A stretch of 64,000 nt of DNA from Acidobacteriota bacterium (GCA_947482665.1 CANKJK010000005.1:66674-130673); one strand, 5' to 3'. Positions 18,920-44,706 are shown, counted from the stretch's first letter. Notes: generated by a model from the sequence alone, not told the origin. Numbers and translations are program-made.

Positions 18920-18949
18920 GAAGGTCCTGACGGGAAATGAGGTGTCGTC

Positions 18950-21258: not shown

Positions 21259-22185
21259 CTACACGCTCCGTCGCACATTCTGCACGTAGCGGATCTCGTT
21301 CAACAGCGCCCGCACGCCATCTCGTGACGGCAGCAGATCGCTGCGCGTCTGCACCGGACGGCAGACGTAGCTGATGTGCAGATGGTCCGCCGCGTAGTCA
21401 GCCCGGAGCGGCTCGAAGCCGGCGCGGCGCAGATACGCAATCATCGTGTCCTCGGTGAGGTAGTAGGGATGATCGATCTTGACCGCCTCCTCCACCGACC
21501 CATTTCGCAGATAGGCGGCGCGGAAATCGACGATGTCAACAAACAGCAGGCCGAGCGGATAGATGAGTGCACGGATTACGTTGAGCGTCCGCTCGATATC
21601 GAGCAGGTGATCGACGGTCTGGAAGAGGCCCACCACGTCGAACCGCCGCCCGTCCGGCTCATACTCCTCGACCAGGGCGGTGATCGTCTCGAGGCCGAGC
21701 GCCTTCGCCTCGTCCACCTCGAGCGGCGCGGGGTCGATCACCGTGGCGTTCAGACCAAAGGTCTGCGACAGGTGGTGGGCGACGACCCCGGTGGAGCCGC
21801 CGATGTCGAGCAGGCTCGTGAAGCCGGCGCCCTCGACGTACGGCGCCAGGAACTCGGCTCGCTCCCGCGCGTAGTCCAACTGCTCGCCCTGGATCGACTT
21901 CGCATCGATGAGCCGCCCGTGGTACGCGCTCACGAGGGGCCGGTATGAGCCGTTATAGAACTGTCCGTAGGCTTCGGGTGTCATCACCGGATTCAAAAAG
22001 ACGAGCCCGCAATCGGCGCACGCGCACGCTGGCGCGGGATACCCGTAGCGGTCGCGGTGGGTAATGACGACGAAGCGATCGCCGCCACAGAGGTTGCACG
22101 CCCGCACGGGCGCCTTGGGCTGTGCGGCGAAGTCAAAGGGTAGAGCGGCGATGCGGGCCGCACGCTCTGGATTCACGCTGGTCAC
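21259..22185 (-). CDS. SAM-dependent methyltransferase with N-terminal Cys4 zinc ribbon
   Basis: 308 aa with CNLCGGDRF...CADCG, then motif I LLDIGGSTGVVAHHL. The stop abuts the neuA start. Confidence 0.8.
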   Translation of the reverse strand: MTSVNPERAARIAALPFDFAAQPKAPVRACNLCGGDRFVVITHRDRYGYPAPACACADCGLVFLNPVMTPEAYGQFYNGSYRPLVSAYHGRLIDAKSIQGEQLDYARERAEFLAPYVEGAGFTSLLDIGGSTGVVAHHLSQTFGLNATVIDPAPLEVDEAKALGLETITALVEEYEPDGRRFDVVGLFQTVDHLLDIERTLNVIRALIYPLGLLFVDIVDFRAAYLRNGSVEEAVKIDHPYYLTEDTMIAYLRRAGFEPLRADYAADHLHISYVCRPVQTRSDLLPSRDGVRALLNEIRYVQNVRRSV

Positions 22186-22212
22186 GAATGACTCCTCGGG
22201 AAGTGTTCCGTG

Positions 22213-23367: not shown

Positions 23368-24395
23368 GCCAGATGGTCTTCCGTCAGGAGTTCGTCCAGA
23401 TCGAGCGCCCGCAGCAGCCGGCGTCCCACGACGTCAGCCAGCCGCGATTCGGGGAGGCCCGTGCCGGGCTTCTTCAGCACCAAATCCCCGTCAGCCAGTG
23501 TATGCCCCTCCGGGAGCGCTCGGACGGCCACGAGGCTGCGCGTGAAGATGGCGCGCAGTGGCTCGGTCGTCACGGCCGCCTCGTCCTTATCGAGCGGCGA
23601 AGCCTGCATCCGCTCGATGAACCGGATGCCCTCCACCAACTGCCGCAGTTCTGCCGTGGTCACCGACGCCGGCACATCCGGGCCAAACATCTCGCGGCTG
23701 AGGGTGACGTGGAGCTCCAGAATGTCGATGCCCATCGTGACCGCGGCGAGCCCTGGATAGATCGTGGCGGAGTGGTCGGAGAGGCCGACCCACCCGTCGT
23801 ACCGCTGCCGGAACAGGGGAATCATGTTGAGCCCGACCAGTTCGGGCGGACAGGGATAGGCCGTCGTGCACTGGAGGACGCCGGCCTGACTGCCGGCGAC
23901 CTGGATACGGGCCATGGCCGCATCCGTCTCCGCCAGCGGGCTCATGCCGCTCGAGATCACGACGGGACGCCCCGTGGCGATCATCCGGTCCAGGAGCGCC
24001 CGATGACCGATTTCCCCTGAGGCGACCTTCCAGAAGCGCTGGCCAATCCGGTCGAGCACCTCGACGGCCTGATTGGAAAATGGCGAGCAGATAAAGGCGA
24101 CACCGCGCTCGGTGCAGTGCTCCGCGAGGCCCTGCCACTGCTCCGGCGTGAATGCCATCCTGCGCCAGTAGTCATAGCGCGTCTGGTCCTGCCGGCTGAA
24201 CTTCACGCGGAAGGGCTCGGAGGGGGTGCTCTCCGCTTCCGCGATGTGCATCTGGAACTTCACGGCGTCGGCGCCGGCCGCGGCGATTGCGTCGACGAAG
24301 GCGTGGGCCTGACCGAGGCTGCCGTCGTGCGTGAGCGCAACTTCACCCATCACGTAGCAGCGTCCGGTTCCAATTTCGGGCTCTGTCTGACTCAT
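23364..24395 (-). CDS. neuB: N-acylneuraminate (nonulosonate) synthase
   Basis: Track ORF 23364..24488 trimmed to ATG 24395 (ATGA overlap with the FamA A1 stop). Motifs CYVMGEVALTHDGSLGQAHAFVDAIAAAGADAVKFQ, VLQCTTAYPCPPE and LSDHS, plus a C-terminal SAF-like domain. Confidence 0.88.
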   Translation of the reverse strand: MSQTEPEIGTGRCYVMGEVALTHDGSLGQAHAFVDAIAAAGADAVKFQMHIAEAESTPSEPFRVKFSRQDQTRYDYWRRMAFTPEQWQGLAEHCTERGVAFICSPFSNQAVEVLDRIGQRFWKVASGEIGHRALLDRMIATGRPVVISSGMSPLAETDAAMARIQVAGSQAGVLQCTTAYPCPPELVGLNMIPLFRQRYDGWVGLSDHSATIYPGLAAVTMGIDILELHVTLSREMFGPDVPASVTTAELRQLVEGIRFIERMQASPLDKDEAAVTTEPLRAIFTRSLVAVRALPEGHTLADGDLVLKKPGTGLPESRLADVVGRRLLRALDLDELLTEDHLA

Positions 24396-26062
24396 GGCAG
24401 GCTCGGTCCTCTCGACGATAATCCCGGCGCCACGCGGAGCACCGCGGTCTTCGCGGCGGCGACGACTCTGGCCCATCGCCGTCGCCATAACGTGGTCCGC
24501 TGTTCCCGGTACTTCTCCGCGTACCGGCGGGCGCGGTCCGCCTGAACCGCCGCCTTGTCTACCGCCTCGCGCGCCTGACGGGGGTCACCCAACCAGCGCC
24601 GTCCCCACGCGGTGTCCATCATCAGGGCCAGCCCGACCGCCTGGAGACGGCCGCGTGCTGTCACCACCTCTGGCAGACCCGGCCGTGCGGCCGCGACGGC
24701 TTCAACCGCCTCCACGAAACGCGGCGTCGCCGGCGCCGTCAGCCCATGAGGCCGCACGAACGCCTCGACAAACGGCGTATTCCGCCGGCTCGTCGTCCCG
24801 GTGAGCCCCGCGAGCAGTTGCCACGCGTGCTCGTCGAGTGAGCGGCTCGTGTGGAGGAAACCCTCACCCACCCGCAGCAGGTATTGGAAGTGGAGTGTGC
24901 CCTCCTGGTTCTCCCGAAACTCGGGCAGCAGGACGGTGTACACGGGCCGGTCGACGATGGCCGACTCGATGAGCGCGCTGGTGTTCAGCCCCACGACGGC
25001 CGCCGCGTGATACATCGAGTCGAAGTAGTCGGCGCGGGTCCCGGGGTCGAGCGGCGCCGAGCCAAACACGTGGACGCCGGGGAACTCCGCGGCGAGATCG
25101 ATGCCGTCCCACTCGGCGAGGCGCTGCGGATGCGGGCGGACGACAATCGGCACCTCGCGCAACCGGGCATCGGCATGTTCCCGAAGCGAGCGGATCCACT
25201 GGCGAACGAAGCCCGGTTCGGGCGGACTGCCCTTGAAGAGCGACGAGCACACATAGAGCACGAACGCGCGGTCGTCGGGCAATCCCACCCGTCCGCAGAA
25301 GACGTCTCTGGCGAGCGCGGGCTGCCGGTCGAACCACTGGTCGAAGCACTGCGCACCAGTCACGACGACAGCCTCGGGCGCCAGACCGTGCAGCTCGACG
25401 GCTTCGCGCCGTTGGGTCTCGTTCCACACGAGCACGCGGTCGGGACGCACACGGATGAGCGCCTTGCTCGTCAGATGATCCCAACTCCACACGGCGAGTG
25501 CGGTGCGGATCCCGAGCGCCCGGGCCGCGCGGAGATAGTCCAGCTGCGGCGACCCGAGCTCAATCAGCGGTGTCAGCACCACCAGGTCGGGAGCCTGCGA
25601 CGCGATGAACTCCCGGACGCGCGGGGACGGTTCGATCGCGCGTTCCACTTCCGCAACCCTGGTCACGGCCTCCCCGACGCCCCAGCGGTCGCGGGCCCAC
25701 GCCGCCAGCGCCGGTGTGCGCTCCGCCGCGCGCTGCCGGATCTTCGAGGCGTCGGCGTAGCGAGCGTCCTCATAGCGAAGGAAGTCGAGGCTGAACCTGA
25801 GCCCTTCCGAGAGGCGCCTCCGCCGCGTGGCCGGCACCTGCGGAGTCAGGCCAAAGGTCACGCCTGGAGTCTCGGCGGCCAGGCGCTCCACGAACTCACG
25901 GTTGTCGTCGCGATCGACGGCCAGGTGCACGCGGTGCCCACGCGCGGCCAATAGCCGGATGGCACCGTCGAAATTGCGGAAGTACGTGTAGTGCCGCGCG
26001 AGAAAGAGAATCGTCATGGTCCCGGACGGGCATCCCGCCTCGCGGCGTTGCTCATCGCTCAT
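24392..26062 (-). CDS. FamA paralog A1: putative GT-B-fold transferase, family unassigned
   Basis: Track ORF 24392..26374 trimmed to ATG 26062 (ATGA overlap with the B1 stop). By homology an alternative start is ATG 26017 (MTILFLARHYTYFRNFDG). Family blocks: LDFLRY, TPLIELGSPQLDYLRAARALGIRTALAVWSWDHLTSK, VVTGAQCFDQWF, FVLYVCSS, IVVRPHP, DYFDSMYHAAAVVGLNTSALIESAIVDRPV, ENQEGTLHFQYLL and FVEAFVRPHGL. Confidence 0.7.
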   Translation of the reverse strand: MSDEQRREAGCPSGTMTILFLARHYTYFRNFDGAIRLLAARGHRVHLAVDRDDNREFVERLAAETPGVTFGLTPQVPATRRRRLSEGLRFSLDFLRYEDARYADASKIRQRAAERTPALAAWARDRWGVGEAVTRVAEVERAIEPSPRVREFIASQAPDLVVLTPLIELGSPQLDYLRAARALGIRTALAVWSWDHLTSKALIRVRPDRVLVWNETQRREAVELHGLAPEAVVVTGAQCFDQWFDRQPALARDVFCGRVGLPDDRAFVLYVCSSLFKGSPPEPGFVRQWIRSLREHADARLREVPIVVRPHPQRLAEWDGIDLAAEFPGVHVFGSAPLDPGTRADYFDSMYHAAAVVGLNTSALIESAIVDRPVYTVLLPEFRENQEGTLHFQYLLRVGEGFLHTSRSLDEHAWQLLAGLTGTTSRRNTPFVEAFVRPHGLTAPATPRFVEAVEAVAAARPGLPEVVTARGRLQAVGLALMMDTAWGRRWLGDPRQAREAVDKAAVQADRARRYAEKYREQRTTLWRRRWARVVAAAKTAVLRVAPGLSSRGPSLP

Positions 26063-32350: not shown

Positions 32351-35013
32351 CGCGGGCCGGTCCCCGCCGGCGCCGTCTCGCGGTCGCCACCGCCGAGCAT
32401 GCGCCGCGTGACCGGCAGTTCGCGCAGGTCGAGCGGCGTGAAGGTTCCAACCTGCAGCGCCGAGAAGACGCGCCGGGCGACATCGAGGTGGTCGAACCGA
32501 AAGCCCGTCGGGTGCGAGTAGAACGCCACGGTGGGCACCCCAAGTAGCGGCGCGAGATACGAGAAGCCGCCGTAGGTGCCGACAAACGCCTCGGCGCCCG
32601 CAATCACAGCGGACTGCACTTCGAGGTTGTCTTCAGGACGCATCAGATCCGTGACGCGGTGCACGCGCGCGCGCACCTGCGAGGGCAGGTCGGCGTGGTC
32701 GTCAAAGCGGATACCCGTGTCGAGCAGCACGACGTCCGAGGTCTCGGTGAGCGCGGCAAGCGTCTCCGCGATGAACTGCCGGTTGCCCGCCGTATCCGGG
32801 AGCGCGCCGTTCGCGTAGAACTTCGCCGCGACGTACCGCTCCGGCAGGGCGGCGCGGACGTCCGGACGGTCCGGACGCTGCAGCGGGCCGTGCGCCGTGA
32901 ACGCATCAATGAGCGTCACCGGGGCGAGCTGCCGCCAGTACGCGTTGAAGAGCCGGTACATCGTCGAAGGATGGATCCGGTGCGTCTTCCCGAGCTTCAG
33001 GTCCGAGGCGACACGCTGCTCGATTTCGCGATCCCAGGCGGTCATCTCGAGATGCTTCAGCCGGCCCCCATAGGACGCCTGCCGCGCCTCGTTCATCGCG
33101 CGGAACTCGTCGGGTGAGCAGTAGCCGAAGAGGTCGACGTAGCGGCTGGTGATGTGCCGGTACCACGACGCCGTGCCGCCGCGCGAGATCACGACCAGGC
33201 GTTCCGGGTCGATGTTGCCGTAGGCACGGGCCCACGCGAGGAACGGAATCCAGTAGAGCAGCTCGAAGCCCGTCTCCGACACCCACGGCCCCAGAATGAT
33301 GGGCTCCTGAATGCGGCCGATGGCCGTCACAAGTGCTCGAACCTCCTGCACCTCAGGCACGTTCGGGAACTTCTCGACTTTCGCCGGATCGGCGCCCTTC
33401 CCCACCTTCGGCAGCATGGTGCCCTGATGGGGCGCGGGCGGCGCGGCCCCGAGCCACGCCAGCAGGCGCCGGCGCACCGGCGCCCACAGCCGCTCGACGA
33501 TCCGGCGCTTCATGCGCTGCACGAACGAGCGGGCCATCTTCCGCCCCAGCTCCGTCCATACCTGCGCGCCGGCCACCAGGAACCATGGCAGCAGGAGGAT
33601 GCGCGCGAGGAACGCCGCCGGGGCCGACACGCGCACCGGGGCCGGCGCCGGTCGCCCTCCAAGCGCCTCGATCGCGTCGGCGAAGCGAGGAGTACCCGCC
33701 TCCTCGCGCCCGAACGGACGGACGAACCCTTCGATGAACCGGCGGCTCTTGTCGGACGTCTCGCCGGCCAGCGTGCGCGCGAGCTGGCCGCGGTGCTCGT
33801 CGAAGCTGCGGGCCACATGCAACAGGCCGCCGTTCACTTCCATGAGGTACCGGAAGTGAAGCGTGCCCTCCTGGTTCCGGTCCGAGAACTCGGGCAGCAG
33901 TACCGTGAACACCGGCCTGTCCACGCAGCCCGCCTCGATGAAGGCACTCGTGTTCAGCCCCACCACGGCGGCGGCGTAGTGCATGGAGTCGAAGTAGTCG
34001 TTCTTGGACTCGGCGTCGATCGGGTGCGCGCCGTAGAGCACAACGTCCGTGAAGCCGGTGAGCTCCGTCGACGCCCATTCCTCCATCCGCTGCGGATGCG
34101 GCCGCACGAGAATCGACGCGTCGCGGAGCGCCGGGTCGGTGCTCGTGCGCACTTCCTGGATCCACCGCTCGACGAATCGGGCCTCGTTGCCCGTGCCCTT
34201 GAAGAGCGACGAGCAGACATACAGGATGAACGGCTTGTCGCGCGGGAGTCCCACGCGTTCGAGGAACGCCTCACGCGGGCGCGACGGCGCACGGTCGAAC
34301 CATTGGTCGAAGCACTGCGCGCCGGTGACGACCACCCGCTCCGGCGGCACGCCATGGAGCCTCACGGCCTCGTCGCGCTGGACGGGGTTCCAGACCGTGA
34401 CGAGCTCAGGCAGCTCGCGGAGGCGTGACTTGCTGGACAGGTGGTCCCAACTACCAACCGCGAGCACCGAACGCAGACCGAGCGCCTTGGCGGCAATCAG
34501 GTGGTCGAGCTGCGGCGTCCCGAGTTCGATGAGCGGCGTGATCAGCACCGCATCCGGCCGCTGGTCCCGCAGGAAACGCTCAAGGGGCTCGTTCGCGGGA
34601 ATGGCGCGCTCGAGCACCCGCAGCCAGCGTTCGAGCCGGCGCGCACCGTCGACGCCACCCAGCCCCGGCACGCGCTGCAGACGGAGCAGGATGTGGGGTG
34701 CGCGCTCACGGGCCCTGGCGCGCAAGTGCGGCGTGTCGTCGTAGAGAGGATCCACGAAGCGCAGGTAGTCAAGCGCCAGGCGCAGCCGGCGCGCCATCTC
34801 CACCCACGCACCGGACTCGCGGCCCTTCGTCCAGCCAAACGTGAGATGCCCGCCGGATTCAGCGGCCAGCCGGCGGACGAGCTGTTCGCCGCCGAGCAGC
34901 TCCCAGCGATCCGCCGACACGTGCACATCGTGCCCGCGCCGGACGAGCTCCATCACCGCGGACTCGAAGTTCCGCAGATAGGCGTAGTGCCGGACAAGGA
35001 AGAGGATACGCAT
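32347..35013 (-). CDS. Natural FamA-FamB fusion (A3-B5)
   Basis: Track ORF 32347..35136 trimmed to ATG 35013 (TGATG overlap), giving 888 aa. It starts MRILFLVRHYAYLRNFES and carries the FamA blocks (VGSWDHLSSK, ILVRPHP, RNQEGTLHFRYLM). After a linker, the last 318 aa (from about nt 33303) form a FamB core: PIILGPWVSETGFELLYWIPFLAW, RIHPSTMYRLF and AFVGTYGGFSYLAPLLG. Confidence 0.75.
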   Translation of the reverse strand: MRILFLVRHYAYLRNFESAVMELVRRGHDVHVSADRWELLGGEQLVRRLAAESGGHLTFGWTKGRESGAWVEMARRLRLALDYLRFVDPLYDDTPHLRARARERAPHILLRLQRVPGLGGVDGARRLERWLRVLERAIPANEPLERFLRDQRPDAVLITPLIELGTPQLDHLIAAKALGLRSVLAVGSWDHLSSKSRLRELPELVTVWNPVQRDEAVRLHGVPPERVVVTGAQCFDQWFDRAPSRPREAFLERVGLPRDKPFILYVCSSLFKGTGNEARFVERWIQEVRTSTDPALRDASILVRPHPQRMEEWASTELTGFTDVVLYGAHPIDAESKNDYFDSMHYAAAVVGLNTSAFIEAGCVDRPVFTVLLPEFSDRNQEGTLHFRYLMEVNGGLLHVARSFDEHRGQLARTLAGETSDKSRRFIEGFVRPFGREEAGTPRFADAIEALGGRPAPAPVRVSAPAAFLARILLLPWFLVAGAQVWTELGRKMARSFVQRMKRRIVERLWAPVRRRLLAWLGAAPPAPHQGTMLPKVGKGADPAKVEKFPNVPEVQEVRALVTAIGRIQEPIILGPWVSETGFELLYWIPFLAWARAYGNIDPERLVVISRGGTASWYRHITSRYVDLFGYCSPDEFRAMNEARQASYGGRLKHLEMTAWDREIEQRVASDLKLGKTHRIHPSTMYRLFNAYWRQLAPVTLIDAFTAHGPLQRPDRPDVRAALPERYVAAKFYANGALPDTAGNRQFIAETLAALTETSDVVLLDTGIRFDDHADLPSQVRARVHRVTDLMRPEDNLEVQSAVIAGAEAFVGTYGGFSYLAPLLGVPTVAFYSHPTGFRFDHLDVARRVFSALQVGTFTPLDLRELPVTRRMLGGGDRETAPAGTGPR

Positions 35014-36608
35014 CAGGCGGCGGTCTTCCGGGGCTTGCCGTCCTTCTTGCTCGGCCCCTTGGATTGGCGGCGGCGCTCCTTCTCCGCCGAGGCTTCGTCG
35101 GCGAGCCAGATCCGGCCGGCCGGCGTGCCAGCCCACCGTAGCGCCAGTCGCGCACCGAGCCGCGCCATGACACCGGGACCAGCGGGCGCGGCCGCGGGAC
35201 CGGACGACGGGAGCGTGGTGATCGCGGAGACGAACCGCGGCGTCGCGGCATCCGTCAGGCCATGCGGACGCACGAACGCTTCGACGAACCGCCGGCTCCG
35301 CGCGGCATCCGCCTCGCCACGGAGGGCGCCCGCGATCTGGATCGCGTGCGCCTCGAGCGAACGCGAGAGGTGCAGCAGGCCCGCGCCCGATCCATCGACG
35401 TCCGTCGACGTCGAGCCGTCCGGGGCCACCGCGGCGCCCAGCAGGTAGTGGAAGTGAATCGTGCCTTCCTGGTTGTCGTAGTACTCGGGCAGGAGCACCG
35501 TGTAGACGGGCCGTTCAGCGATGGCGCCCTCGATGAACGCGCTCGTGTTGAGCCCCACCACCGCGGCGCTGTAGTGCAGTGAGTCGAAGTAGTCGGCCCG
35601 CGGCTCCGGCGCGATGGGATTCCCGCCCCAGACGGTCACGCCCGCCTCCTGAGACAGATCCACGCTCTCCCACTCCTGGAGACGCGATGGATGCGGACGC
35701 ACGAGAATCCCGCACGACGCCAGCTCGGGATGCCCGCTCTCGCGAAGAGCGCGGATCCACCGCCGCACGAATTCCGCCTCGACGGGACTCCCCTTGAAGA
35801 GCGACGAACACACCCAGAGAAGGAACGGCCGGTCATCGGGCAGGCCCACGCGTTGGCAGAACTCGGCGCGCGGACGGGAGGGCGTCCGGTCGAACCAGCG
35901 GTCGAAGCATTGCGCGCCGGTGACCGTCAGGCGCGATGCCGGCACGCCGTGCAGGTCGATCGCCTCGCGCTCCTGTGTCGGGTTCCAGACGATCACGCGG
36001 TCCGGCACGGTCCGGATGATGGCCTTGCTCGAGAGGTGGTCCCAGCTCCATACGCAGAGCGCGGACGGAATGCGGAGCCGCCGCGCCGCATAGAGGAAGT
36101 CGAGCTGCGGCGAGGCCACGACTCCGATGAGCGGCGTCAGCAGCACCGCATCCGGCTGTTCGGCCCGGAGCAGGGCCTCGACCTCCGGCGCGGGGCCGAT
36201 CGCCTGTTCGACGGCGGAGAGCATCCGGCCGAGCCAGCGGCGCAGCGGCGCCCGACTGAATGGGCCGCGCTCGGTCAGCCGCACGACGCCGGACGGCGTC
36301 TTCCGGCGAGCCCGACCCTTCAGGCGCGGCGTCTTCGCGTAGGCCGGCTCCAGATACCGCAAGTAGTCGATGCCGAAGCGGAGGCGGACGGCCAGCGCGT
36401 AGCCGCGGCCGGCCGGGGCCGGCGACACGCTCGTCCGGATGCGACCGGGATAGGCGGCACTGAGGCGGTCGATGATCTGCGTGCCGCCGAACTCCTCGTG
36501 CTGTTCGACCACGATGTGCAGGTCGTGCCCGGCGCGGGCCAGCTCCTCGAGCGCGGAATCGAAGTTCCGCAGGTACGTCAGGTGCCGGGCCACGAAGAGG
36601 ATCTTCAT
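35013..36608 (-). CDS. FamA paralog A4
   Basis: 531 aa with ATGA overlap with the upstream stop. Motifs MKILFVARHLTYLRNFDS, VWSWDHLSSK, ILVRPHP, DYFDSLHYSAAVVGLNTSAFIEGAI, DNQEGTIHFHYLL and FVEAFVRPHGL. Confidence 0.7.
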   Translation of the reverse strand: MKILFVARHLTYLRNFDSALEELARAGHDLHIVVEQHEEFGGTQIIDRLSAAYPGRIRTSVSPAPAGRGYALAVRLRFGIDYLRYLEPAYAKTPRLKGRARRKTPSGVVRLTERGPFSRAPLRRWLGRMLSAVEQAIGPAPEVEALLRAEQPDAVLLTPLIGVVASPQLDFLYAARRLRIPSALCVWSWDHLSSKAIIRTVPDRVIVWNPTQEREAIDLHGVPASRLTVTGAQCFDRWFDRTPSRPRAEFCQRVGLPDDRPFLLWVCSSLFKGSPVEAEFVRRWIRALRESGHPELASCGILVRPHPSRLQEWESVDLSQEAGVTVWGGNPIAPEPRADYFDSLHYSAAVVGLNTSAFIEGAIAERPVYTVLLPEYYDNQEGTIHFHYLLGAAVAPDGSTSTDVDGSGAGLLHLSRSLEAHAIQIAGALRGEADAARSRRFVEAFVRPHGLTDAATPRFVSAITTLPSSGPAAAPAGPGVMARLGARLALRWAGTPAGRIWLADEASAEKERRRQSKGPSKKDGKPRKTAA

Positions 36609-39325
36609 GCGGGCCCCGCCCCTCGACGCGTGCGGCCCGTGAGATGGCGATAGTGCAGGCTGTCGCTGCTCTGGGTCCGGTCGCCCTTGCCCAGCTTCGA
36701 CGCCCGCGGCGCCTTCTTCATCGCCGACGTGTAATCCGTGTCGAGCAGCGTCACGTCTTGGACGACGTAGTCACGCCCGAGGATCGCGCTCACTGACGAT
36801 AGCTCGTCATTGTGCGCCGAGTGCTCCCGGTTGAGGCTGTAGACGCGCGGGCAGCCGGCCTTCGCGGCTAGGTCCAGATAGGCGGCCACTTGGTCGGCCC
36901 TCATCTCCTGGAACGACGCGATGTTCACGAGGAGCGACGGCGCGAAACCGGGGAGTTCGTGGGTCCGCGTGTGAGGCACGAAGACGACGTCGTACTCGCG
37001 CCAGCGGGCCTTCTCGGTCTCGGGCATCGCCGGATCCCAGATGAGCGTCTTCGCCGATGGCCGCACCGTGCGCAGGTAGGTCGCCGAGAAGAGGAACAGC
37101 TCCGGGAAGTCGGTGATGACGTAGGTGCACGGCGTCACGAGCGACGTGAACTGGTACGCGAAGCCGCCCCAGCCGGCGCCGATCTCCCAGACCACGGGCC
37201 GCGACAGGGCGTCGCGCGTGGCGGCGGCCTCCGCCCGGACCTCGTCGAGCATGCCGGTCCGGTGCAGCCCGGTGAGCACCTCCAGGTATTTCAGCGTGTC
37301 GAGATTGTGCAGAGTGCTGTCGATCTCGAAACCGAAGCCTCCGAGCGCCGGATGCTCCGGGACGACGAGACTCCCGCCACCCAGCTCCAGCAAGGCGCGC
37401 AGGCGCGCCTCGAAGGAGACGCGCTTCTCGCCATGGCTCTCTCGGTAGTCGTAGGGCCGGAGCCCGGTGATGTGGAAGGCGTGATGACGCAGCTTGGCGA
37501 TGACGAGCGGCGTCGCCTCGATCATGTAATCGATGTTGCCCAGCTCTTCGGTCCAGTAGGCGCTTGGCGACGACGTCCCGGAGAGGAGGCCCCGCTCGCG
37601 TGCCAGAATCGCGGCCACGCGACTCCGCACGTCGGCGAAGATCGCGACCGGATCCGAGGCGGCGGCGCCCGTCACGATCGCGGGGTGGATGCGCACGGGT
37701 GGGTGCACGACTGGTGCCTCGATCGTCGCGGGCGTCTTTCTCACCGTCTCTGGCTTCTCCACCGACGCGGCCACCGGCGTCGCCTTCGGAGCCTTCGTGG
37801 GCTTCGGCGGTTTCGGCGTCCGCTCATCCTTCGGCGGGCGCGCCTTCCCCTTGGGCGTTCCCTTCGGCTTCTTGCGTTCGGGCGCCCGGTTCACGAGCGC
37901 TGCCACGGGCCGGAGCGCCGTCCGGACCACGACATCGAGCAGGCCGTCACGATCCGCCACGGGCGCCGGCCCCGACGCGAACCGCTCGATCGTGTCGGCG
38001 AGAATCGGCGTGCACGGTGTCTCGATGCCATGCGGGCGGATGAACGACGCGACGAAGCGCCGCGTCTCGGCCGTCGCCGCCTCGGGGTTGCCCAGCACGC
38101 CCGCCAGTTGCCGCAGGTGCTCCTCGAACGTCGCGGCCACGCGGAGGAACCCGCCGTTCTCCGGCAGCAGATGGCGGAAGTGCAACGTGCCTTCCTGCGT
38201 GCCGGCGAAGTCGCCGGTCAGCGAGAAGACCGGCCGGCCCACGATGGCGGACTCGATCATCGCGCTGGTATTGACGCCGACGACGGCTGCGGCGTGGAAC
38301 ATCGAGTCAAAAAAGCCGGCCCGGTTCGCTTCGTCGACGGCGTTGTACGGCCCGCGCGGCCACACGGAGACGGCTCCGAGGTCGCTCAGGTCAGCGTGCT
38401 CCCAGGCGTGCCAGTTGTACGGGTGCGGACGCACGAGCACCGGGATGTCGCGCACCAGGGGGGCGGCGGAACGGCGCAACGCCTCGATCCACCGGCGCAC
38501 GAACGGCAGCTCGATCTCGGAGCGGGCGATGAAGACCGACGATGCCGTGTAGAGCAGATACGGCCGAGCGTCCGGGAGACCGGCAGCCGCGGTGAAGTCC
38601 TCGCGCGTCGTGCTGGCGGTCCGCTCGAACCAGCGGTCGAAGAGCTGCGCGCCGGTCACGGCCACCTTCGAGGCGGGCACCCCGTGATACCGCACCGCCT
38701 CGGCCTTCTGGGCTTCGTTCCAGACGATCACGAGGTCCGGCTGCACGCGCAGCAGCCCCTTGTTGGTCAGGTTGTCCCAGCTGGCGATCGCCACCGCGAC
38801 GCGAATGCCCAGGCGCCGCGCCGCGCGCACGACATCCACCTGCTCGGAGGCTGCGTCGATGAGCGGCGACACCACGACAACATCGGGGCGGTGGGTGCGC
38901 AGGAACTCCAGGACGCGGCCGCTCACCGGCACGCCGCGCTCGGCTTCGCCCAGCACGCGCACGGCGGCGCCCAGCGTGCCCGGGCGCAGGGACCGGATCC
39001 GGTCGAGCCCCTGCAGTGGGTGCGGCAGCACCTTCCGCCGCATGCGGTCCCGGAGCGCGGGTGCATCCGCGTAGTCAGGATGGAGGTAGCGCAGGAAGTC
39101 GACCGTGCCTCGCAGGCTCGTCGCGAGCCGCGCCCAGCGGTCGCCCCGGACCGGCACCAGCCCGAGCGAGTGGACGCCGTCGACGTCGTCGACGCGTGCC
39201 TGCTTCTGCTCCTTCACGTGACTCACCGCGACGGAGACGTCATGACCGCGACTCGCCAGCAGGCGCAGCACCGAATCGTAGAACCGGAGGTACTCCGGGG
39301 ACGCGAGAACGAAGAGCACCTTCAC
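36605..39325 (-). CDS. FamA paralog A5 fused via Pro/Lys-rich linker to a SAM-methyltransferase-like domain
   Basis: Track ORF 36605..39919 trimmed to GTG 39325 (TAGTG overlap), giving 906 aa. Residues 1 to about 480 are FamA (VKVLFVLASPEYLRFYDS, IASWDNLTNK, VLVRPHP, GTQEGTLHFRHLL). Residues 481-548 (nt 37682..37885) are the linker RKKPKGTPKGKARPPKDERTPKPPKPTKAPKATP. Residues about 550-870 contain VVWEIGAGWGGFAYQF (GxGxG SAM motif I) and VNIASFQEM. Confidence 0.7.
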   Translation of the reverse strand: MKVLFVLASPEYLRFYDSVLRLLASRGHDVSVAVSHVKEQKQARVDDVDGVHSLGLVPVRGDRWARLATSLRGTVDFLRYLHPDYADAPALRDRMRRKVLPHPLQGLDRIRSLRPGTLGAAVRVLGEAERGVPVSGRVLEFLRTHRPDVVVVSPLIDAASEQVDVVRAARRLGIRVAVAIASWDNLTNKGLLRVQPDLVIVWNEAQKAEAVRYHGVPASKVAVTGAQLFDRWFERTASTTREDFTAAAGLPDARPYLLYTASSVFIARSEIELPFVRRWIEALRRSAAPLVRDIPVLVRPHPYNWHAWEHADLSDLGAVSVWPRGPYNAVDEANRAGFFDSMFHAAAVVGVNTSAMIESAIVGRPVFSLTGDFAGTQEGTLHFRHLLPENGGFLRVAATFEEHLRQLAGVLGNPEAATAETRRFVASFIRPHGIETPCTPILADTIERFASGPAPVADRDGLLDVVVRTALRPVAALVNRAPERKKPKGTPKGKARPPKDERTPKPPKPTKAPKATPVAASVEKPETVRKTPATIEAPVVHPPVRIHPAIVTGAAASDPVAIFADVRSRVAAILARERGLLSGTSSPSAYWTEELGNIDYMIEATPLVIAKLRHHAFHITGLRPYDYRESHGEKRVSFEARLRALLELGGGSLVVPEHPALGGFGFEIDSTLHNLDTLKYLEVLTGLHRTGMLDEVRAEAAATRDALSRPVVWEIGAGWGGFAYQFTSLVTPCTYVITDFPELFLFSATYLRTVRPSAKTLIWDPAMPETEKARWREYDVVFVPHTRTHELPGFAPSLLVNIASFQEMRADQVAAYLDLAAKAGCPRVYSLNREHSAHNDELSSVSAILGRDYVVQDVTLLDTDYTSAMKKAPRASKLGKGDRTQSSDSLHYRHLTGRTRRGAGPA

Positions 39326-40851
39326 TAGCCGCGCTCCCGTTCGTCGGCGGCGGGCCCGCCGGCAGAGGCCTTCTTCCGTGCCTTCTGCAGGGCGGCGGCA
39401 CGGTCGACGGCGGCCGCGACCGGCGCGGCCGCCCAGGTGATCAGGCGATCCGTCATGGTCCGGGGCCGCGGGTGCGGCTTCACATCGACCAGCGACTCGA
39501 TCGCCCGCACGAAGGGTTCGGCTGCAGGCTGCGTCAGGCCGTGAGGCCGCACGAACGCCTCGATGAAGGCCCGACTCCGCGCCGCAAAGACCTCCGGTGC
39601 CGCCAGGATCTCGCCAAGCTGCGCGACGTGCGTTGACAGATCCGAGGCCAGATGCAGCAGGCCGCCGTTGACGCTCTTCAAGTGCTGGAAGTGCAGGGTG
39701 CCTTCCTGCGTGCCGGCGAAGTCCGCGGTCTGAATCGCGCAGACGGGGCGACCGACGATGCCCGACTCGATCTGCGCGCTCGTGTTCACGCCGACGACGG
39801 CCACGGCGTGAAACATCGAGTCGAAGTAGACGGCTCTCGCATCGGTGTCCACCGGGTTGGCGCCGGCGCGCGGCCAGATGGCCACGGCCTCGACGTCTCT
39901 GAGATCGACGTCCCGCCACTGCTCCGCGTTCTGCGGGTGCGGGCGGATCAGGACGCCGGCCGTCCGGACGCGCACGTCAGAGGAGGCGCGAAGCGCCGCA
40001 AGCCAGGTCCGGATGAACGGCACCTCGTGAGGCGTGATGAACGGCGACGAGCAGAGGTAGAGCACGAACGGCCGGCCCTCGGGCAAGCCGACCATCGCGC
40101 AGAACGCCTCGCGCGTCGTCGAGGGCTGTTGCGTGAACCAGTGGTCGTAGGCCTGGGCGCCGGTCACCATCACGCGGTCCGGGGGCACGCCGTGGATCTC
40201 AGCGGCTTCGCGGCGCTGGGCCTCATTCCACACCGTCAGTCGGTCGGGAATCTCATGAATCACGCCCTTCGTCGTCAGGTGGTCCCAACTGCCGACGCAG
40301 TGGCAGACGGGAATGCCGCGGTCCCTCGCCGCGCGCACGTAGTCGACCTGCACGGAGCCGAAATAGAGCAACGGCGTCACCAGCAGCACGTCGGGCTTGT
40401 GCTCATCCAGGATCTGGAGCGGCCCGCGCCCGTAGGGCAGCGCGCGCTCGACCCTTCGGACGAGGGCGCCCAGGAGTGCCATGCCCGGAACCGACCCGAT
40501 GACGGGCCAGCGGGCCACGCGCGAGGCGATGGGCGGCGCCTGCGTGGACGCGCGGACGCGGAGGCTCCGTGCCTGGTCGTACCGCGGGCCGAGATAACGC
40601 CAGTAGTCGAGGCACTGGCGGAGTCGCACGGCCAGCTGATGGAACGGATCGCTCTTCCGCGTGGGCGCGTAGCCGTAGGTGAATGCCTCGGGATGGGTGG
40701 CCAAGAGGTTGTCGATGGTCTTCGTGCCGCCGAGCGTGTCGCGCCGGTCGGCCAGCAGGTGAATGCGATGGCCGGAAGCCGCGAGCCGCCGCAGCGCCGG
40801 CTCGAAGTTCCGCAGGAACCCGAAATGAGAGACGGAAAAGAGAATCTTCAC
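39325..40851 (-). CDS. FamA paralog A6 (first gene after the intergenic promoter region)
   Basis: Track ORF 39325..40878 begins at a GTG with no SD. I prefer GTG 40851, which gives a VKILFSVSHFGFLRNFEP start homologous to the other paralogs and has GGGAG 12 nt upstream. Blocks VGSWDHLTTK, VLIRPHP, GTQEGTLHFQHLK and FIEAFVRPHGL. Confidence 0.7.
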   Translation of the reverse strand: MKILFSVSHFGFLRNFEPALRRLAASGHRIHLLADRRDTLGGTKTIDNLLATHPEAFTYGYAPTRKSDPFHQLAVRLRQCLDYWRYLGPRYDQARSLRVRASTQAPPIASRVARWPVIGSVPGMALLGALVRRVERALPYGRGPLQILDEHKPDVLLVTPLLYFGSVQVDYVRAARDRGIPVCHCVGSWDHLTTKGVIHEIPDRLTVWNEAQRREAAEIHGVPPDRVMVTGAQAYDHWFTQQPSTTREAFCAMVGLPEGRPFVLYLCSSPFITPHEVPFIRTWLAALRASSDVRVRTAGVLIRPHPQNAEQWRDVDLRDVEAVAIWPRAGANPVDTDARAVYFDSMFHAVAVVGVNTSAQIESGIVGRPVCAIQTADFAGTQEGTLHFQHLKSVNGGLLHLASDLSTHVAQLGEILAAPEVFAARSRAFIEAFVRPHGLTQPAAEPFVRAIESLVDVKPHPRPRTMTDRLITWAAAPVAAAVDRAAALQKARKKASAGGPAADERERG

Positions 40852-41114
40852 GTGGCGTACAGGCTCCCGCCCTCTCACCTACAGGCGGTGACGACGGCCG
40901 TCCCGGGCTGCGGCAAAGCGGGGCTTCGCGGTCAGCCGGAGGGACGGTACACGGGTTCAGTGCGACAAGGCCGCCCGTACCTGGCAATGGTGACGCCGGA
41001 ACGGCAGGCCTTCGCCGGGTCGGGGAGGCCCGATCAGGACAGCGAGACGAGCAGTTGGCGTGCGGAGCACCAGACCCGGAAAGTGGCGGGAGCGGTCATG
41101 CGCAATAGAGGTGA

Positions 41115-41277: not shown

Positions 41278-42555
41278 CTACGGCAGGCGGGAGGTGGGGT
41301 GTGACGGCGCGCCCAGGATCCCGCGCAGCAACCCCGCCTGATGGACTGAGAGCGGAACCAGGGCGCCGCCGTCGACCAGTTCGAGGGCGTGCTGCGCTGC
41401 GTGCAGATGGGTCGTCTGGAAGTTGGACTCGGCGTGAAAGGCCACCGTGTCCACGCCGTAGAGCGGCGCCAGGTACGAGAACCCGCCATAGGTGCCCACG
41501 AAGGCGGAAGCACGACTGATGACGGCTGTCTGAATCGCGAGATTGGCCGAAGGATGCAGACCAGCGTCCACCAGGTGAACCCGATGTCCGCGCTCCGCGC
41601 CGGCGTCAGAGTGGTCGTCGAGTCCCACGCCCGCGCTGAGGACGACGACATCGGTACTGGCCGCGAGGCTTCTGATCGTCGTGGCGACAAAGGCCCGGTT
41701 CTCGGGCGTGTCCGGAAAGCACTGGCTGAAGTAGAAGCGCACGGCCGTATACGTGGGTGGCAGGGTCACGCCCGCGTCCACCGCCGGCAGCGGCTCATAC
41801 CGGCGGTACCGCGTGTACGCGTCGAGCCTGGCGATGGACGCGTCGCGCCGCCAATAGGGATAGAGGAGCGCGTACATCATCCCCGGATGAATGATCGACA
41901 CCGCGCCAGGGCCCGTGCCCTGCACGGCGCGCCGAAGCAGATCCCGATCGAAGGTACCCATCACGCGCTGCTTGGGATTTTCCGTCGTCCGCCGGCGGAA
42001 CTCCTCCGGCGTCGCCAGGTCGAGCGCGTCCACATAACGGCTCGCGAGGCCGTCGTACCAGGGAGCGGTGCCCCCGCGCGAGATCACGGTGACTCGGGCC
42101 GGGTCGATGCCGGCGTGGCCCAATGCCCACCGGACAAAAGGCACCCAATAGATCAGCTCGAAGCCGACCTCCCCCGTCCACGGCCCCACGATCACGGCGC
42201 CGCTGGACCGGCCCGCACGGGCCAGCCGATCGAGCACTCGCTCCTCATTCAGCTCGACGTTCCGGTCGCTCACCCGCTTGAGGACCCGCTCACTGAATTG
42301 CAGTTGGCGCGTGAGCCGGGACCGCAGCCCCGAGGTGTGCTTCCGCAGCACCTCGACCTCGCGATAGACCTCGGTCAGCCGCTCAGACTGCGACGACGCG
42401 CGGCGCTGCAGCACCTCGTTCACATCCCGCTGCTCACGCGCGAACTTCTCGAAGCGCGCGCGCTCCGCGTCGGCATCCGGGTTGAGAAGGGGCCGGAGGC
42501 GGCGACCAAGCCCCGCGAGCAGGCGTCCCGCGAGGGTGGGCGGGGACTGGCTCAC
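41278..42555 (-). CDS. FamB paralog B6 with about 120-aa coiled-coil-like head, coupled to the ABC exporter genes
   Basis: Track ORF 41278..43428 trimmed to GTG 42555 (GTGA overlap with the wzm stop), giving 425 aa. Head: ERARFEKFAREQRDVNEVLQRRASSQSERLTEVYREVEVLRKHTSGLRSRLTRQLQFSERVLKRV. Core: AVIVGPWTGEVGFELIYWVPFVRW, IIHPGMMYALL and AFVGTYGGFSYLAPLYG. Confidence 0.7.
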   Translation of the reverse strand: MSQSPPTLAGRLLAGLGRRLRPLLNPDADAERARFEKFAREQRDVNEVLQRRASSQSERLTEVYREVEVLRKHTSGLRSRLTRQLQFSERVLKRVSDRNVELNEERVLDRLARAGRSSGAVIVGPWTGEVGFELIYWVPFVRWALGHAGIDPARVTVISRGGTAPWYDGLASRYVDALDLATPEEFRRRTTENPKQRVMGTFDRDLLRRAVQGTGPGAVSIIHPGMMYALLYPYWRRDASIARLDAYTRYRRYEPLPAVDAGVTLPPTYTAVRFYFSQCFPDTPENRAFVATTIRSLAASTDVVVLSAGVGLDDHSDAGAERGHRVHLVDAGLHPSANLAIQTAVISRASAFVGTYGGFSYLAPLYGVDTVAFHAESNFQTTHLHAAQHALELVDGGALVPLSVHQAGLLRGILGAPSHPTSRLP

Positions 42556-43445
42556 AGTTCGTCCACCGCGGCCGCCTCTGAACTCGTGAAATACCAGAGG
42601 CCCGCGAGCAGGAGCACCAGGATGATCACGGCCGTGGACAGCAGCGGCAGCCCGGGAAAGACACCCACGCCGAGCAGCCCCCACTTGAAGGTCTCGACGA
42701 GGGACGCCATCGGATTGAGATAGATCACCCAGCGCAGGTGCGGAGGCACCTGGGACATCGGATAGATCACGGGCGTCAGGTACATCCAGAACCGGGTGAA
42801 GTAGCGGAGGCCGTAGCGCACTTCCTTGTGCCGCACCTGCCAGACGGAGGTGAACAGCCCGACCGCCGTCGCCATCAGGACCGCGCCGATCGCGGCGCCG
42901 AACGCCACCAGCCAGCCCGGACCGAACGCGAGATACCACCGGTGATCGGTGTAGAGGTAGTAACACGCGCCGACAACAATCAGACCGAGGTAGATGAAGA
43001 AATCCACGAATCCCGGAGCGGCCGCCGAGGCGGGCACGATCACGCGCGGAAAGTAGAGCTTCTTGATCACGCCCTTGTTCATGTCGACGCTGCGCGTCAC
43101 CCACAGCAGCGATCGTTCGAACAGGTGCCAGATGGACATGCCCGTCAGGAAGAACAGGAAATACGGCAGCCCGTCCGACGGCACCTTGAGGAACTTGCCG
43201 AAGATGAAGGTGCTGATGAGGATGGGGGCAAGCGGCCGCGCAAACAGCCAGAAGATGCCGAGGGTGGTGCCCTGATACTTCTGCGTCACGAGGCGCGTGG
43301 CGAAGAACCACCACAGCTTGCGATAGCGCCACGTTTCCTCGACGCGGGCCTGGAAGCCCATCGCGACCGGCGCAATCTCCCACGCAACGGCGTCCCCGGC
43401 CGGGGCCGGCAGGAACCGCCGTACCCAACGCTTAAGCAGGGACAT
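42552..43445 (-). CDS. wzm: ABC-2-type polysaccharide/teichoic-acid export permease
   Basis: 297 aa with about six hydrophobic helices. The N-terminal YRKLWWFFATRLVTQKYQGTTLGIFWLFARPL is typical of Wzm/TagG/KpsM permeases. 14-nt overlap with the wzt stop. Confidence 0.85.
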   Translation of the reverse strand: MSLLKRWVRRFLPAPAGDAVAWEIAPVAMGFQARVEETWRYRKLWWFFATRLVTQKYQGTTLGIFWLFARPLAPILISTFIFGKFLKVPSDGLPYFLFFLTGMSIWHLFERSLLWVTRSVDMNKGVIKKLYFPRVIVPASAAAPGFVDFFIYLGLIVVGACYYLYTDHRWYLAFGPGWLVAFGAAIGAVLMATAVGLFTSVWQVRHKEVRYGLRYFTRFWMYLTPVIYPMSQVPPHLRWVIYLNPMASLVETFKWGLLGVGVFPGLPLLSTAVIILVLLLAGLWYFTSSEAAAVDEL

Positions 43446-44706
43446 GCGCGGCCTCCACCGTCCACTCCAGACGTGGCGAGACGAATCCGGTGCGGTTCAA
43501 CTTGCCCTTGGACGTCACCGCACCCTCCGTGGCCGTGTTGTAGGCCATGAATGACAACGCGCTGTAGACAACCAGCGTGTACTCGCGCGCCTGCCCCTCA
43601 CGGAGCGTCGTCACGCTGACGTTGACGGTGTAATTGATGTCCGCGAGCAGATGCGCCGGAATCCGGGCCATGAGCGAATACATCCCCGGCTCCAGGATTT
43701 CCAGCCACTCGGTGGCCTGCGCCCGAAACACCAGCTGGTTTTTGGCCAGCAAATCGAGTCCACCCCGGACGGACACCCGCTTGAACGCCTCGAGGTCGAT
43801 GCGCACGAACACATCTTCCGTCGTGGGCGCGGCGCCGATCTCCTTGCCGGCTGCCGAGAGGAGCTTCACGCCCCTGATGGAGCAGAAGCGGCTCTCCTGG
43901 CGGCCACGCTCGTAGCGCGTCGCCTCGGAGTTGTCCCAGACCGAGGCCTGATACTCGGCGACGACCTCCTCGGGCTCCCCGAGGCTGGCCACCGTCCCCT
44001 TGTTGAGCCAGATCACCTTGTTGCAGACGCGCACGATGGCGTCCATGTCGTGCGAGACGAAGAGCACGATCAGCCCTTCGCGGCCGGCCTGCGCGACACG
44101 CTCGAGACACCGCTCCTGGAACACAAGATCCCCGACAGCCAGGATCTCGTCAGCCAGCAGGATCTGCGGGTTCATGTGAATGGCCACCGAGAACGCGAGC
44201 CGCAGGTTCATCCCGCTGGAGAAGTACTTGACCGGCTGATCGAGGAACTGGTCGATTTCGGCAAAGGCGAGGATGTCCCCCATCCGCTCCATCACCTCGG
44301 CCTTCGGCATGCCATGCATCGCGGCGTTCATGATCACGTTCTCCCGCGCGGTCAGGTCGGCGTTGAAGCCCGCCCCGAGTTCGAGCAGCGAGACGACGCG
44401 GCCGCTACCGCGGACCCGGCCCTCGGTTGGCGGGGTCACACGCGCCAGAATCTTCAGGAGCGTGCTCTTGCCGGCGCCGTTCGGACCGATGACGCCGAGG
44501 ATCGTCCCTGGCTCGACCTCGAAGGAGGCGCTCCTGAGCGCCCAGAAGTCGCGCAGCGCCGGGTCCTCCGTGCTGCCGAACCAATCCCGTGCGCGCCGCA
44601 GGGCGCCGCGCCAGCCACCGCCGGTGTCGGCGCGCTCGACGGGGGCGCGGTCCAAGCGATACCGCTTGCCAAGGTCCTCGACGATCAGTTTTCCCTGACT
44701 ACTCAA
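43432..44706 (-). CDS. wzt: ABC polysaccharide export ATP-binding protein with C-terminal glycan-binding-type extension
   Basis: 424 aa with Walker A GPNGAGKSTLLK, signature FSSGMNLRLAF and Walker B ILLADEILAVGD. An extra beta-rich C-terminal domain of about 170 aa sits where Wzt carbohydrate-binding modules occur. TTG start at 44706 with GAGGAG 10 nt upstream. Confidence 0.85.
   Translation of the reverse strand: MSSQGKLIVEDLGKRYRLDRAPVERADTGGGWRGALRRARDWFGSTEDPALRDFWALRSASFEVEPGTILGVIGPNGAGKSTLLKILARVTPPTEGRVRGSGRVVSLLELGAGFNADLTARENVIMNAAMHGMPKAEVMERMGDILAFAEIDQFLDQPVKYFSSGMNLRLAFSVAIHMNPQILLADEILAVGDLVFQERCLERVAQAGREGLIVLFVSHDMDAIVRVCNKVIWLNKGTVASLGEPEEVVAEYQASVWDNSEATRYERGRQESRFCSIRGVKLLSAAGKEIGAAPTTEDVFVRIDLEAFKRVSVRGGLDLLAKNQLVFRAQATEWLEILEPGMYSLMARIPAHLLADINYTVNVSVTTLREGQAREYTLVVYSALSFMAYNTATEGAVTSKGKLNRTGFVSPRLEWTVEAAHVPA

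Follow-up and report, generated by a model that had tools for sequence, protein, structure and literature searches.

Direct precedent exists for the capping of a glycan by multidomain proteins that join methyltransferase and glycosyltransferase modules, the export then running through a Wzt with a carbohydrate-binding module (PMC11231755, PMC2943079, PMC3482155). WbdD (Escherichia coli O9a/O8) and ORF6 (Klebsiella pneumoniae O7) contain a methyltransferase and bring ABC-transporter-dependent glycan synthesis to its end, and in these systems the C-terminal carbohydrate-binding module of Wzt admits capped chains only (PMC3482155, PMC11231755). Terminated systems carry such a module on Wzt, and a coiled-coil ruler is present in all characterised terminators (PMC11231755). 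The terminal signals known include methyl groups and also ulosonic-acid caps, with Kdo caps in Klebsiella O12 and O4 (PMC11231755). In the S-layer glycan of Geobacillus stearothermophilus NRS 2004/3a, the WsaE system, the chain is capped with 2-O-methyl rhamnose, and the proposal is that Wzt binds this methylated end (PMC2943079).

We analysed a 64,000-nucleotide stretch from an Acidobacteriota bacterium (GCA_947482665.1, CANKJK010000005.1:66674-130673), hereafter the window. An earlier note had read positions 36605-39325 as a FamA domain fused through a spacer to a methyltransferase, and had proposed the product as a chain terminator. The fusion itself is borne out by start/stop overlaps, codon GC and orthologs sharing the architecture: 36605..39325 (minus strand) is a real gene whose 906-aa product, here FamA-MT, has three parts (FamA, tether and methyltransferase), is soluble and contains no hydrophobic segment. 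The start codon is GTG, overlapping by one base the stop of an upstream FamA paralog (39325..40878, minus strand; TAGTG), and the TGA stop overlaps the ATG of a downstream FamA paralog (35013..36608, minus strand; ATGA). Third-position GC in the stop-to-stop ORF is 0.82, a typical coding value at a window GC of 68%. The exact 906-aa protein is present on 18 metagenome contigs. The gene sits within a very large surface-polysaccharide cluster of an uncultured soil-type bacterium.

The fusion is kept in ∼19 metagenomic proteins, mostly labelled Vicinamibacterales. Chance read-through as its source is rejected, since 18 full-length metagenomic orthologs (60–77% identity, 96–100% coverage) have the two-domain architecture in common. 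At locus L085 the two halves are separate genes that lie side by side and in synteny, FamA (532 aa) and then the methyltransferase (375 aa). Thirty-six methyltransferase-carrying loci have a same-strand FamA upstream as well, and in 25 of them the FamA domain ends no more than 1.2 kb before the methyltransferase. These arrangements speak for a functional coupling of the two halves.

FamA (aa 1–480; 37886..39325, minus strand) is a GT-B glycosyltransferase-like domain of an uncharacterised family, for which a Pfam search gave no family at cutoff. Its AF2 model (pLDDT 91.6) has the GT-B fold, with two Rossmann-like domains and an inter-domain cleft. Foldseek returned GT-B proteins only, with UDP-GlcNAc 2-epimerases, LanGT2, WaaG and MshA on top (E down to 4e-12; target-normalised TM-scores up to 0.68); because all structural matches of FamA and of the methyltransferase are remote (query-normalised TM-score 0.3–0.5, ∼12–16% identity), they indicate fold only. 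Seven FamA paralogs, FamA-MT included, occur in the window, and the 89 residues invariant across them are all kept in FamA-MT. Tandem FamA-FamA proteins and FamA-FamB fusions also exist.

The C-terminal Rossmann half of FamA contains an invariant R-P-H-P motif (aa 299–302; 38420..38431, minus strand) similar to the HP motif that bacterial sialyl/nonulosonic-acid transferases have, as described in PMC5420450. The Tannerella forsythia proteins BFO_1060 / Tanf_01245 are pseudaminic/legionaminic-acid transferases (NF046086), and HP and D/E-D/E-G are motifs of bacterial sialyltransferases (PMC5420450). Like FamA, this family is GT-B-type, has an HP motif and is encoded beside CMP-nonulosonic-acid biosynthesis genes; the window holds two NeuB copies, a NeuC-like epimerase and a CMP-transferase. 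Unlike it, FamA falls below the NF046086 cutoff (27.2 bits against 200 for FamA-MT, at profile positions 41–169 of 365) and lacks D/E-D/E-G: the pattern [DE][DE]G is absent from aa 1–480 of FamA-MT, where the HP-type RPHP is present. Weak NF046086 matches recur in 19/19 orthologs (best E 1e-7) and in five of the seven window paralogs, FamA scoring 20–27 bits over ∼130 of the 365 profile positions. On these matches FamA can be no more than a distant relative, and any donor sugar named for it is a guess, because the score lies far under the cutoff and D/E-D/E-G is absent.

A tether of ∼80 aa (aa ∼481–558; 37652..37885, minus strand), Pro/Lys/Ala-rich, basic and predicted to be disordered, separates the two domains. 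A low-complexity linker had been placed in 37682..37885, and the string quoted for it is present just inside, at aa 484–543 (nt 37697–37876), with P at 25% and K at 20% against 7.2% and 3.2% in the whole protein. Low pLDDT at the start of the methyltransferase AF2 model belongs to the evidence for this tether. Proline makes up 20–25% of the tether. We reject the tether as a length-defining molecular ruler, since its length ranges between 34 and 92 aa across the orthologs, a crude heptad script found no heptad pattern in aa 431–600, and the tether is absent at L085, where the halves are separate genes. FamA-MT thus has no coiled-coil ruler of the kind found in terminators of the WbdD / WbbB / Kp O7 ORF6 type.

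The C-terminal domain (aa ∼559–906; 36608..37651, minus strand) consists of a helical N-terminal subdomain and a Rossmann core. The GxGxG SAM motif claimed for it is the SAM-binding motif I VVWEIGAGWGGFAYQF (E714-x-G716-x-G718; aa 711–726; 37148..37195, minus strand), an intact E-x-G-x-G-x-G, downstream of which a conserved acidic residue, D739 (in YVITD), follows strand 2. E169, G171, G173 and D194 (domain numbering) are invariant in 108 homologs. The family named in the earlier note, TIGR04371, proved correct: it matches aa 707–822 with 70.3 bits (E 1.9e-19; cutoff 44), the alignment covering profile positions 148–263 of 273 (the C-terminal 116), and it is matched by 19/19 orthologs (best E 1.4e-24). 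No Pfam methyltransferase family is above threshold for the FamA-MT protein. The AF2 model of the domain (pLDDT 92.5) gave 431 PDB matches in Foldseek at E ≤ 1e-3, and the best 50 of the 431 are almost all SAM methyltransferases; the best is LCMT1, a carboxyl methyltransferase, and the matches span O-, N- and C-methyltransferases without discrimination. Standalone homologs of ∼350 aa, some named as TIGR04371, cover 85–98% of aa 546–906. The predicted fold and the motif confirm the domain as a complete class-I SAM methyltransferase of ∼350 aa, which may bind SAM and transfer methyl to a sugar hydroxyl.

TIGR04371 is curated by NCBIfam as ‘putative sugar O-methyltransferase’ (methyltran_NanM), the name that NCBI already gives the orthologs; in the literature searched we found no experimentally characterised member. 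Its members are mostly standalone proteins of ∼350 aa, whereas in FamA-MT the domain follows a GT-B module within one fusion protein.

The genes wzm and wzt lie two genes upstream of FamA-MT, as in clusters for ABC-transporter-dependent glycans. Wzm is an ABC-2 permease with hydrophobic segments (42552..43445, minus strand), and Wzt is a TagH/Wzt-type ABC-transporter ATPase (43432..44706, minus strand; 424 aa; ABC_tran match at aa 57–188). The extra C-terminal domain that had been claimed for this ATPase is indeed there, at aa 263–424 (∼162 aa; 43435..43920, minus strand). Against PF14524 it scores 16 bits (E 0.01; profile positions 4–130 of 143), below the cutoff of 30.4; 17/20 orthologous extra domains match PF14524 and no other family, and one Wzt homolog, P0394, carries PF14524 with a score that passes Pfam. 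A PDB sequence search with the profile of the extra domain gave no match. Its sequence points to a divergent Wzt_C, and we call it Wzt_C-like.

Our preferred reading, to which we assign a probability of roughly 0.45, is that FamA-MT is a soluble bifunctional enzyme that adds a sugar and O-methylates, and that the methylated non-reducing end stops elongation and signals export by Wzm/Wzt. In the scheme that we infer for donor and acceptor sugars, methyl position, termination and Wzt recognition, the enzyme would be a cytoplasmic member of a surface-glycan assembly line, whose product probably contains nonulosonic acid and would be exported by the ABC transporter. FamA would add one sugar to the lipid-linked glycan at its non-reducing end; CMP-activated nonulosonic acid is a possible donor because of the weak, consistent likeness to the Tannerella Pse/Leg transferases and the invariant RPHP. 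The tethered TIGR04371 domain would then O-methylate the added residue or its neighbour, the tether serving merely to hold two catalytic modules together and measuring no length. The methylated terminus would block elongation and tell Wzm/Wzt that the chain is finished.

The same bifunctional enzyme might instead place its methyl within the chain, on a residue of every repeat or, in a glycan that is long and non-repetitive, at a fixed site inside it, as a decoration that neither stops elongation nor signals export; we regard this as a real possibility, if a doubtful one. Such a use would suit a methyltransferase family that is large (4345 50%-identity cluster representatives) and mostly standalone or joined to varied glycosyltransferase modules at either end, and that co-occurs with nonulosonic-acid genes irrespective of a nearby transporter. 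Three other sampled contexts of the family have nonulosonic-acid genes near and no wzm/wzt within 10 kb; in these three it tracks the former more than the latter, which also tells against termination. So does the position of the FamA-MT orthologs at L001, L006 and L085, inside a glycosyltransferase array and away from the transporter rather than beside wzt. Related loci can carry two or three TIGR04371-type domains, which fit decoration better than a single cap, but the window has only one. A Wzt with a Wzt_C-like domain implies some terminal signal, methyl being among those known (PMC11231755), and a methyltransferase tethered to a transferase would by design act on the newly made non-reducing end; both argue against decoration. 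The missing coiled coil argues for it, and a tether that is Pro-rich, variable and dispensable in the split form weakens the terminator reading, as do the window Wzt_C assignment below the Pfam cutoff and an NF046086 score of 27 bits against 200 with D/E-D/E-G absent.

The signal read by Wzt could also come from another protein, FamA-MT being then an ordinary elongation or decoration module, which we think unlikely. At least three other methyltransferases in the window, at 18248–18949, 21259–22185 and 55184–56455, speak for this and against FamA-MT as terminator; the one at 18248–18949 overlaps a GT2 gene and might act paired with it. The other candidate is g425 (41278..42555, minus strand), a sixth FamB paralog (∼40% identity) directly after wzm, which might add a capping sugar such as nonulosonic acid, given that ulosonic-acid caps are known and characterised terminators have coiled coils (PMC11231755). 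It has a charged, helical N-terminal extension of ∼100–125 aa with a heptad signal, and the order wzt-wzm-g425-FamA-[FamA-MT] recurs at L008; but that signal, obtained with a crude script, is weak, other loci have their g425 orthologs well away from wzm, and FamB has no known function. Very improbable, in our view, is a chemistry other than sugar O-methylation by a transferase-methyltransferase, with the methyl going to a nonulosonic/uronic acid carboxylate or an amino substituent, or with FamA acting as an epimerase-like sugar-nucleotide enzyme. LCMT1 as best methyltransferase match, the mixed O-, N- and C-methyltransferases beside it and the UDP-GlcNAc 2-epimerases heading the FamA matches would agree with this, but these likenesses are remote and of fold only, the curated TIGR04371 entry stands for sugar O-methyltransferases, the window already has a true Epimerase_2 gene at 22213–23367, and seven paralogs with FamA-FamA tandems and FamA-FamB fusions point to transferases that build a polymer and not to enzymes that supply precursors.

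A bolder form of the terminator reading, in which the FamA transferases form a new, CMP-nonulosonic-acid-dependent family and FamA-MT caps the chain with an O-methylated nonulosonic acid read by a divergent Wzt_C clade, without a coiled-coil ruler, seems to us distinctly unlikely. If true, the cap would be an export signal of a kind so far undescribed, belonging to a narrow Wzt_C clade in uncultured Acidobacteriota (Vicinamibacterales), and with no coiled-coil ruler the completion of the chain would depend on how roughly 20 dedicated transferases are ordered, not on length measurement.

By analogy with WbdD, WsaE and Klebsiella O7 ORF6, a chain terminator is a plausible reading of FamA-MT. Of the earlier proposal, the transferase-methyltransferase fusion, the TIGR04371 assignment and the extra Wzt domain stand, and there is direct precedent for methyltransferase-glycosyltransferase cap proteins working with a carbohydrate-binding-module Wzt; a coiled coil, usual in terminators, is absent. 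Where WbdD and ORF6 have a coiled-coil molecular ruler, FamA-MT has a Pro/Lys-rich tether of variable length, and whereas the O9a and O7 terminators have a kinase making methyl-phosphate, FamA-MT has none. We detected no relationship in sequence to WsaE, whose modules run MT-GT-GT, the methyltransferase at the N-terminus and rhamnosyltransferase domains behind it, in contrast to the GT-B(FamA)-tether-MT order with TIGR04371 found here. Like WsaE, however, FamA-MT is a single soluble polypeptide that combines glycosyltransferase and methyltransferase modules, and its gene belongs to a wzm/wzt cluster in which start and stop codons overlap.

We consider it probable (about 0.85) that the target gene encodes a bifunctional glycosyltransferase-methyltransferase that is active on a glycan. 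The 906-aa protein, hereafter FamA-MT, is encoded on the minus strand at 36605..39325 and joins a domain of the glycosyltransferase-like FamA family (aa 1-480) to a C-terminal methyltransferase domain (aa ∼559-906). The window has a GC content of ∼68%, with almost every gene on its minus strand. The target shares one base of its GTG start with the stop of the upstream gene (TAGTG), and at its other end its TGA runs into the ATG of the gene downstream (ATGA), close packing that is usual in polysaccharide operons. The protein has no hydrophobic segment, and exactly the same protein is encoded on 18 metagenome contigs. The linker string read in the earlier note was located at aa 484-543 (nt 37697-37876), where proline makes up 25% and lysine 20% of residues, versus 7.2% and 3.2% in the whole protein; the SAM motif that it reported, VVWEIGAGWGGFAYQF, lies at aa 711-726.

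The C-terminal domain belongs to TIGR04371, the NCBIfam family 'putative sugar O-methyltransferase' that the earlier note had named: the model matches aa 707-822 with 70.3 bits (cutoff 44) as well as 19 of 19 orthologs, and orthologs of the target already carry this name in public annotation. Pfam, applied to the separate domain, gave only a sub-threshold match to Methyltransf_12. A search with aa 546-906 alone returned 844 relatives; among the 120 listed most are standalone proteins of ∼350 aa with 45-60% identity, and because these cover 85-98% of the query the module is taken to be complete. An exhaustive profile search yielded 4345 cluster representatives at E<=1e-3, and by a rough count about one-fifth of the best 150 of these carry further modules, fused at one end or the other. 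The AlphaFold model of the domain (108 sequences; pLDDT 92.5, pTM 0.91) has a helical subdomain at its N-terminus and, after it, a Rossmann core. Of the 431 PDB matches that Foldseek returned at E<=1e-3, 50 were listed; these are nearly all SAM-dependent methyltransferases, and none of the 50 is close (query-normalised TM-score <0.4, identity ∼12%). A PDB search with the single sequence gave nothing useful. The family alignment shows no variation in the E-x-G-x-G-x-G motif or in the acidic residue that follows strand 2 (D739 of the target). The domain is thus a genuine class-I methyltransferase without a close solved relative; its fold does not reveal its substrate, and the sugar specificity is putative. 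Our literature search found nothing specific on a characterised member of TIGR04371 or of TIGR04372.

The FamA-methyltransferase architecture is common to 18 other proteins with 60-77% identity. Their inter-domain segment varies from 34 to 92 aa, and only its composition is conserved (K, P and A; net charge +2 to +12). A crude scan found no heptad pattern in the tether. In GCA_040960095.1 the same syntenic position is occupied by two genes with overlapping ends, encoding a FamA protein of 532 aa and a methyltransferase of 375 aa that is 59% identical to the domain of the target. Thirty-six non-redundant loci with a methyltransferase match have a FamA domain upstream on the same strand, which ends within 1.2 kb of the methyltransferase in 25 of the 36; these 25 include FamA-FamA proteins followed by a gene for the methyltransferase domain with a ∼350-aa C-terminal extension, taken to be a GT2 domain since some homologs are fused to GT2. 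From the conserved fusion, the split syntenic pair and the proximity of FamA we conclude that the two activities are coupled in function, with the linker a flexible tether. Its variable length, proline content, missing heptads and split ortholog rule out a molecular ruler.

The 18 fusion orthologs come mostly from MAGs labelled Vicinamibacterales, with one from a MAG labelled Acidimicrobiia. Two loci that share the synteny at 64-72% identity, L009 (VFZH01000010.1) and L012 (CAYNUO010000002.1), are from MAGs labelled Acidimicrobiia and 'Bifidobacteriaceae', while nearly all other relatives are from Vicinamibacterales/Acidobacteriota; the odd labels point to horizontal transfer or mis-binning. 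Another ortholog of ∼60% identity (locus L002, 10001-12586 of ENA ERZ28763718 ctg125398) lies away from any glycan cluster, with IS110, IS1595 and IS3-type transposase genes and HNH endonuclease genes as neighbours.

FamA, a GT-B family, is uncharacterised. Pfam gave no match above cutoff, Glyco_transf_4 being sub-threshold, and neither single-sequence nor profile search matched a PDB sequence. The AlphaFold model (pLDDT 91.6) has the GT-B fold, with UDP-GlcNAc 2-epimerases as the best Foldseek matches, followed by LanGT2, WaaG, MshA and CalG1. The window holds seven FamA paralogs of 41-50% identity, and all 89 residues invariant among them are kept in the target, including R-P-H-P at aa 299-302; tandem FamA-FamA proteins of ∼1070 aa are common outside the window. 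Every ortholog gives a weak match to NF046086, the family of Tannerella forsythia BFO_1060/Tanf_01245, which carries an HP motif and by genetic evidence transfers pseudaminic- or legionaminic-acid derivatives (PMC5420450). Membership of FamA in NF046086 is not supported, the matches being at most 27 bits against a cutoff of 200 and the D/E-D/E-G motif being absent.

Genes of nonulosonic-acid type lie at 2900-4087, 5889-7112, 9912-11048 and 20554-24488, and comprise two NeuB homologs, a NeuC-like 2-epimerase, a CMP-sugar cytidylyltransferase and two DegT-type aminotransferases, with a small methyltransferase gene (21259-22185) lying between those of the epimerase and the cytidylyltransferase. 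The set points to one or two nonulosonic-acid pathways that include tailoring. By table count, genes of nonulosonic-acid type also occur within 10 kb in roughly 45 of the related loci fetched by FamA similarity. A CMP-nonulosonic acid as the FamA donor is for these reasons a reasonable lead, not a result.

Transferase-like genes show extreme paralogy at 24392-52353 and 60953-62128. Besides FamA there are six copies of FamB, two of them fused behind FamA, and five of FamC, which belongs to the TIGR04372 glycosyltransferase family; together with three GT2 genes these make up ∼20 transferase modules in one operon-like array. FamB has no family assignment and carries the motifs GPWxSEVGFELLYWxPF and VGTYGGFSYLAP. 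A distant kinship of FamB with the methyltransferase was considered because FamA-FamB fusions mirror FamA-MT, and was ruled out by its glycosyltransferase-like motifs and the lack of BLAST similarity to the methyltransferase domain. Two pairs of longest-ORF calls overlap by 196-316 nt (24392-26374/26059-27318 and 27328-30171/29976-31628); the downstream members probably start later than called, so the N-terminal extensions of those FamA and FamB proteins are uncertain. A second transferase-methyltransferase pairing is formed by a GT2 gene (17055-18251) and the small Methyltransf_11 gene that overlaps it (18248-18949). The three paralogous FamD proteins (8497-9915, 11507-13015 and 15162-16706; 38% identity) are polytopic, with 9-12 hydrophobic segments, and have a weak DUF4149 match only; they may be components resembling a polymerase, ligase or flippase, and parts of that kind would be unexpected beside an ABC exporter. 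Pfam matched nothing in a 947-aa protein (52434-55277), which has about six hydrophobic segments.

The exporter genes, wzm (42552-43445; ABC2_membrane) and wzt (43432-44706; 424 aa), lie two genes upstream of the target. The extra C-terminal domain that the earlier note had seen in the ATPase is present, residues 263-424 extending past the ATPase domain, and is likely a divergent Wzt_C domain by sequence. The Pfam model aligns over positions 4-130 of 143 with E 0.01 and 16 bits, under its cutoff of 30.4; it matches 17 of 20 orthologous C-domains from related loci, another, weak match being seen in one only. Across 5.8 billion proteins, the profile search yielded only 30 relatives; one of them (41% identity) carries PF14524. 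The profile matched no PDB sequence.

Chains are terminated with methyl or methyl-phosphate groups by WbdD and by ORF6 of K. pneumoniae O7, and every terminated system studied has a carbohydrate-binding module on Wzt (PMC3482155, PMC11231755). The proposal that FamA-MT is a chain terminator read by the Wzt C-terminal domain is favoured by the apparent Wzt_C-like domain, by the single TIGR04371 domain in the window, by the gene order wzt-wzm-g425-FamA-[FamA-MT] being kept in a related locus (L008), and by the consideration that a transferase-tethered methyltransferase would naturally act on the new non-reducing end. Against it, the target has no coiled coil, a feature described as a hallmark of terminators (PMC11231755), the window has at least three other methyltransferases, one overlapping a GT2 gene, and some related loci have two or three TIGR04371 domains. 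Moreover, in loci L001, L006 and L085-L087 the methyltransferase gene neighbours nonulosonic-acid genes, and no transporter lies within 10 kb of it. The Wzt C-domain is seen in 19 fetched loci and the methyltransferase also in 8 of these 19, but since the clusters (40-60 kb) far exceed the 10-kb flanks, absences are uninformative and co-variation of the two cannot be read. The capping enzyme could alternatively be the product of g425 (41278-42555, minus strand), perhaps the real terminating transferase: this FamB paralog (∼40% identity) directly follows wzm, and its N-terminal extension of 100-125 aa is charged and helical and gives a weak heptad signal. We hold only tentatively, at slightly under an even chance, that the product of FamA-MT is a terminal signal read by Wzt.

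Should the methyl group be no more than a decoration, the target would be an ordinary tailoring module, already correctly annotated by public pipelines. Its interest rests mainly on a possible ruler-less terminator, perhaps of a nonulosonic-acid cap, in an abundant uncultured phylum, and the surrounding cluster adds to this by its very unusual size and paralogy. Capping of ABC-exported glycans by methyltransferase-glycosyltransferase fusions is an established principle, known from only a handful of Proteobacteria and Firmicutes. A terminator here would extend it to abundant uncultured soil Acidobacteriota and to two families without a characterised member (FamA and TIGR04371), with no coiled-coil ruler, and would offer a way into an unusually large cluster of ∼20 transferase modules and two nonulosonic-acid pathways. 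FamA-MT stands outside the families of WsaE, WbdD and O7-ORF6, differing in domain order, transferase family, methyltransferase family and the missing ruler, but would work like them.
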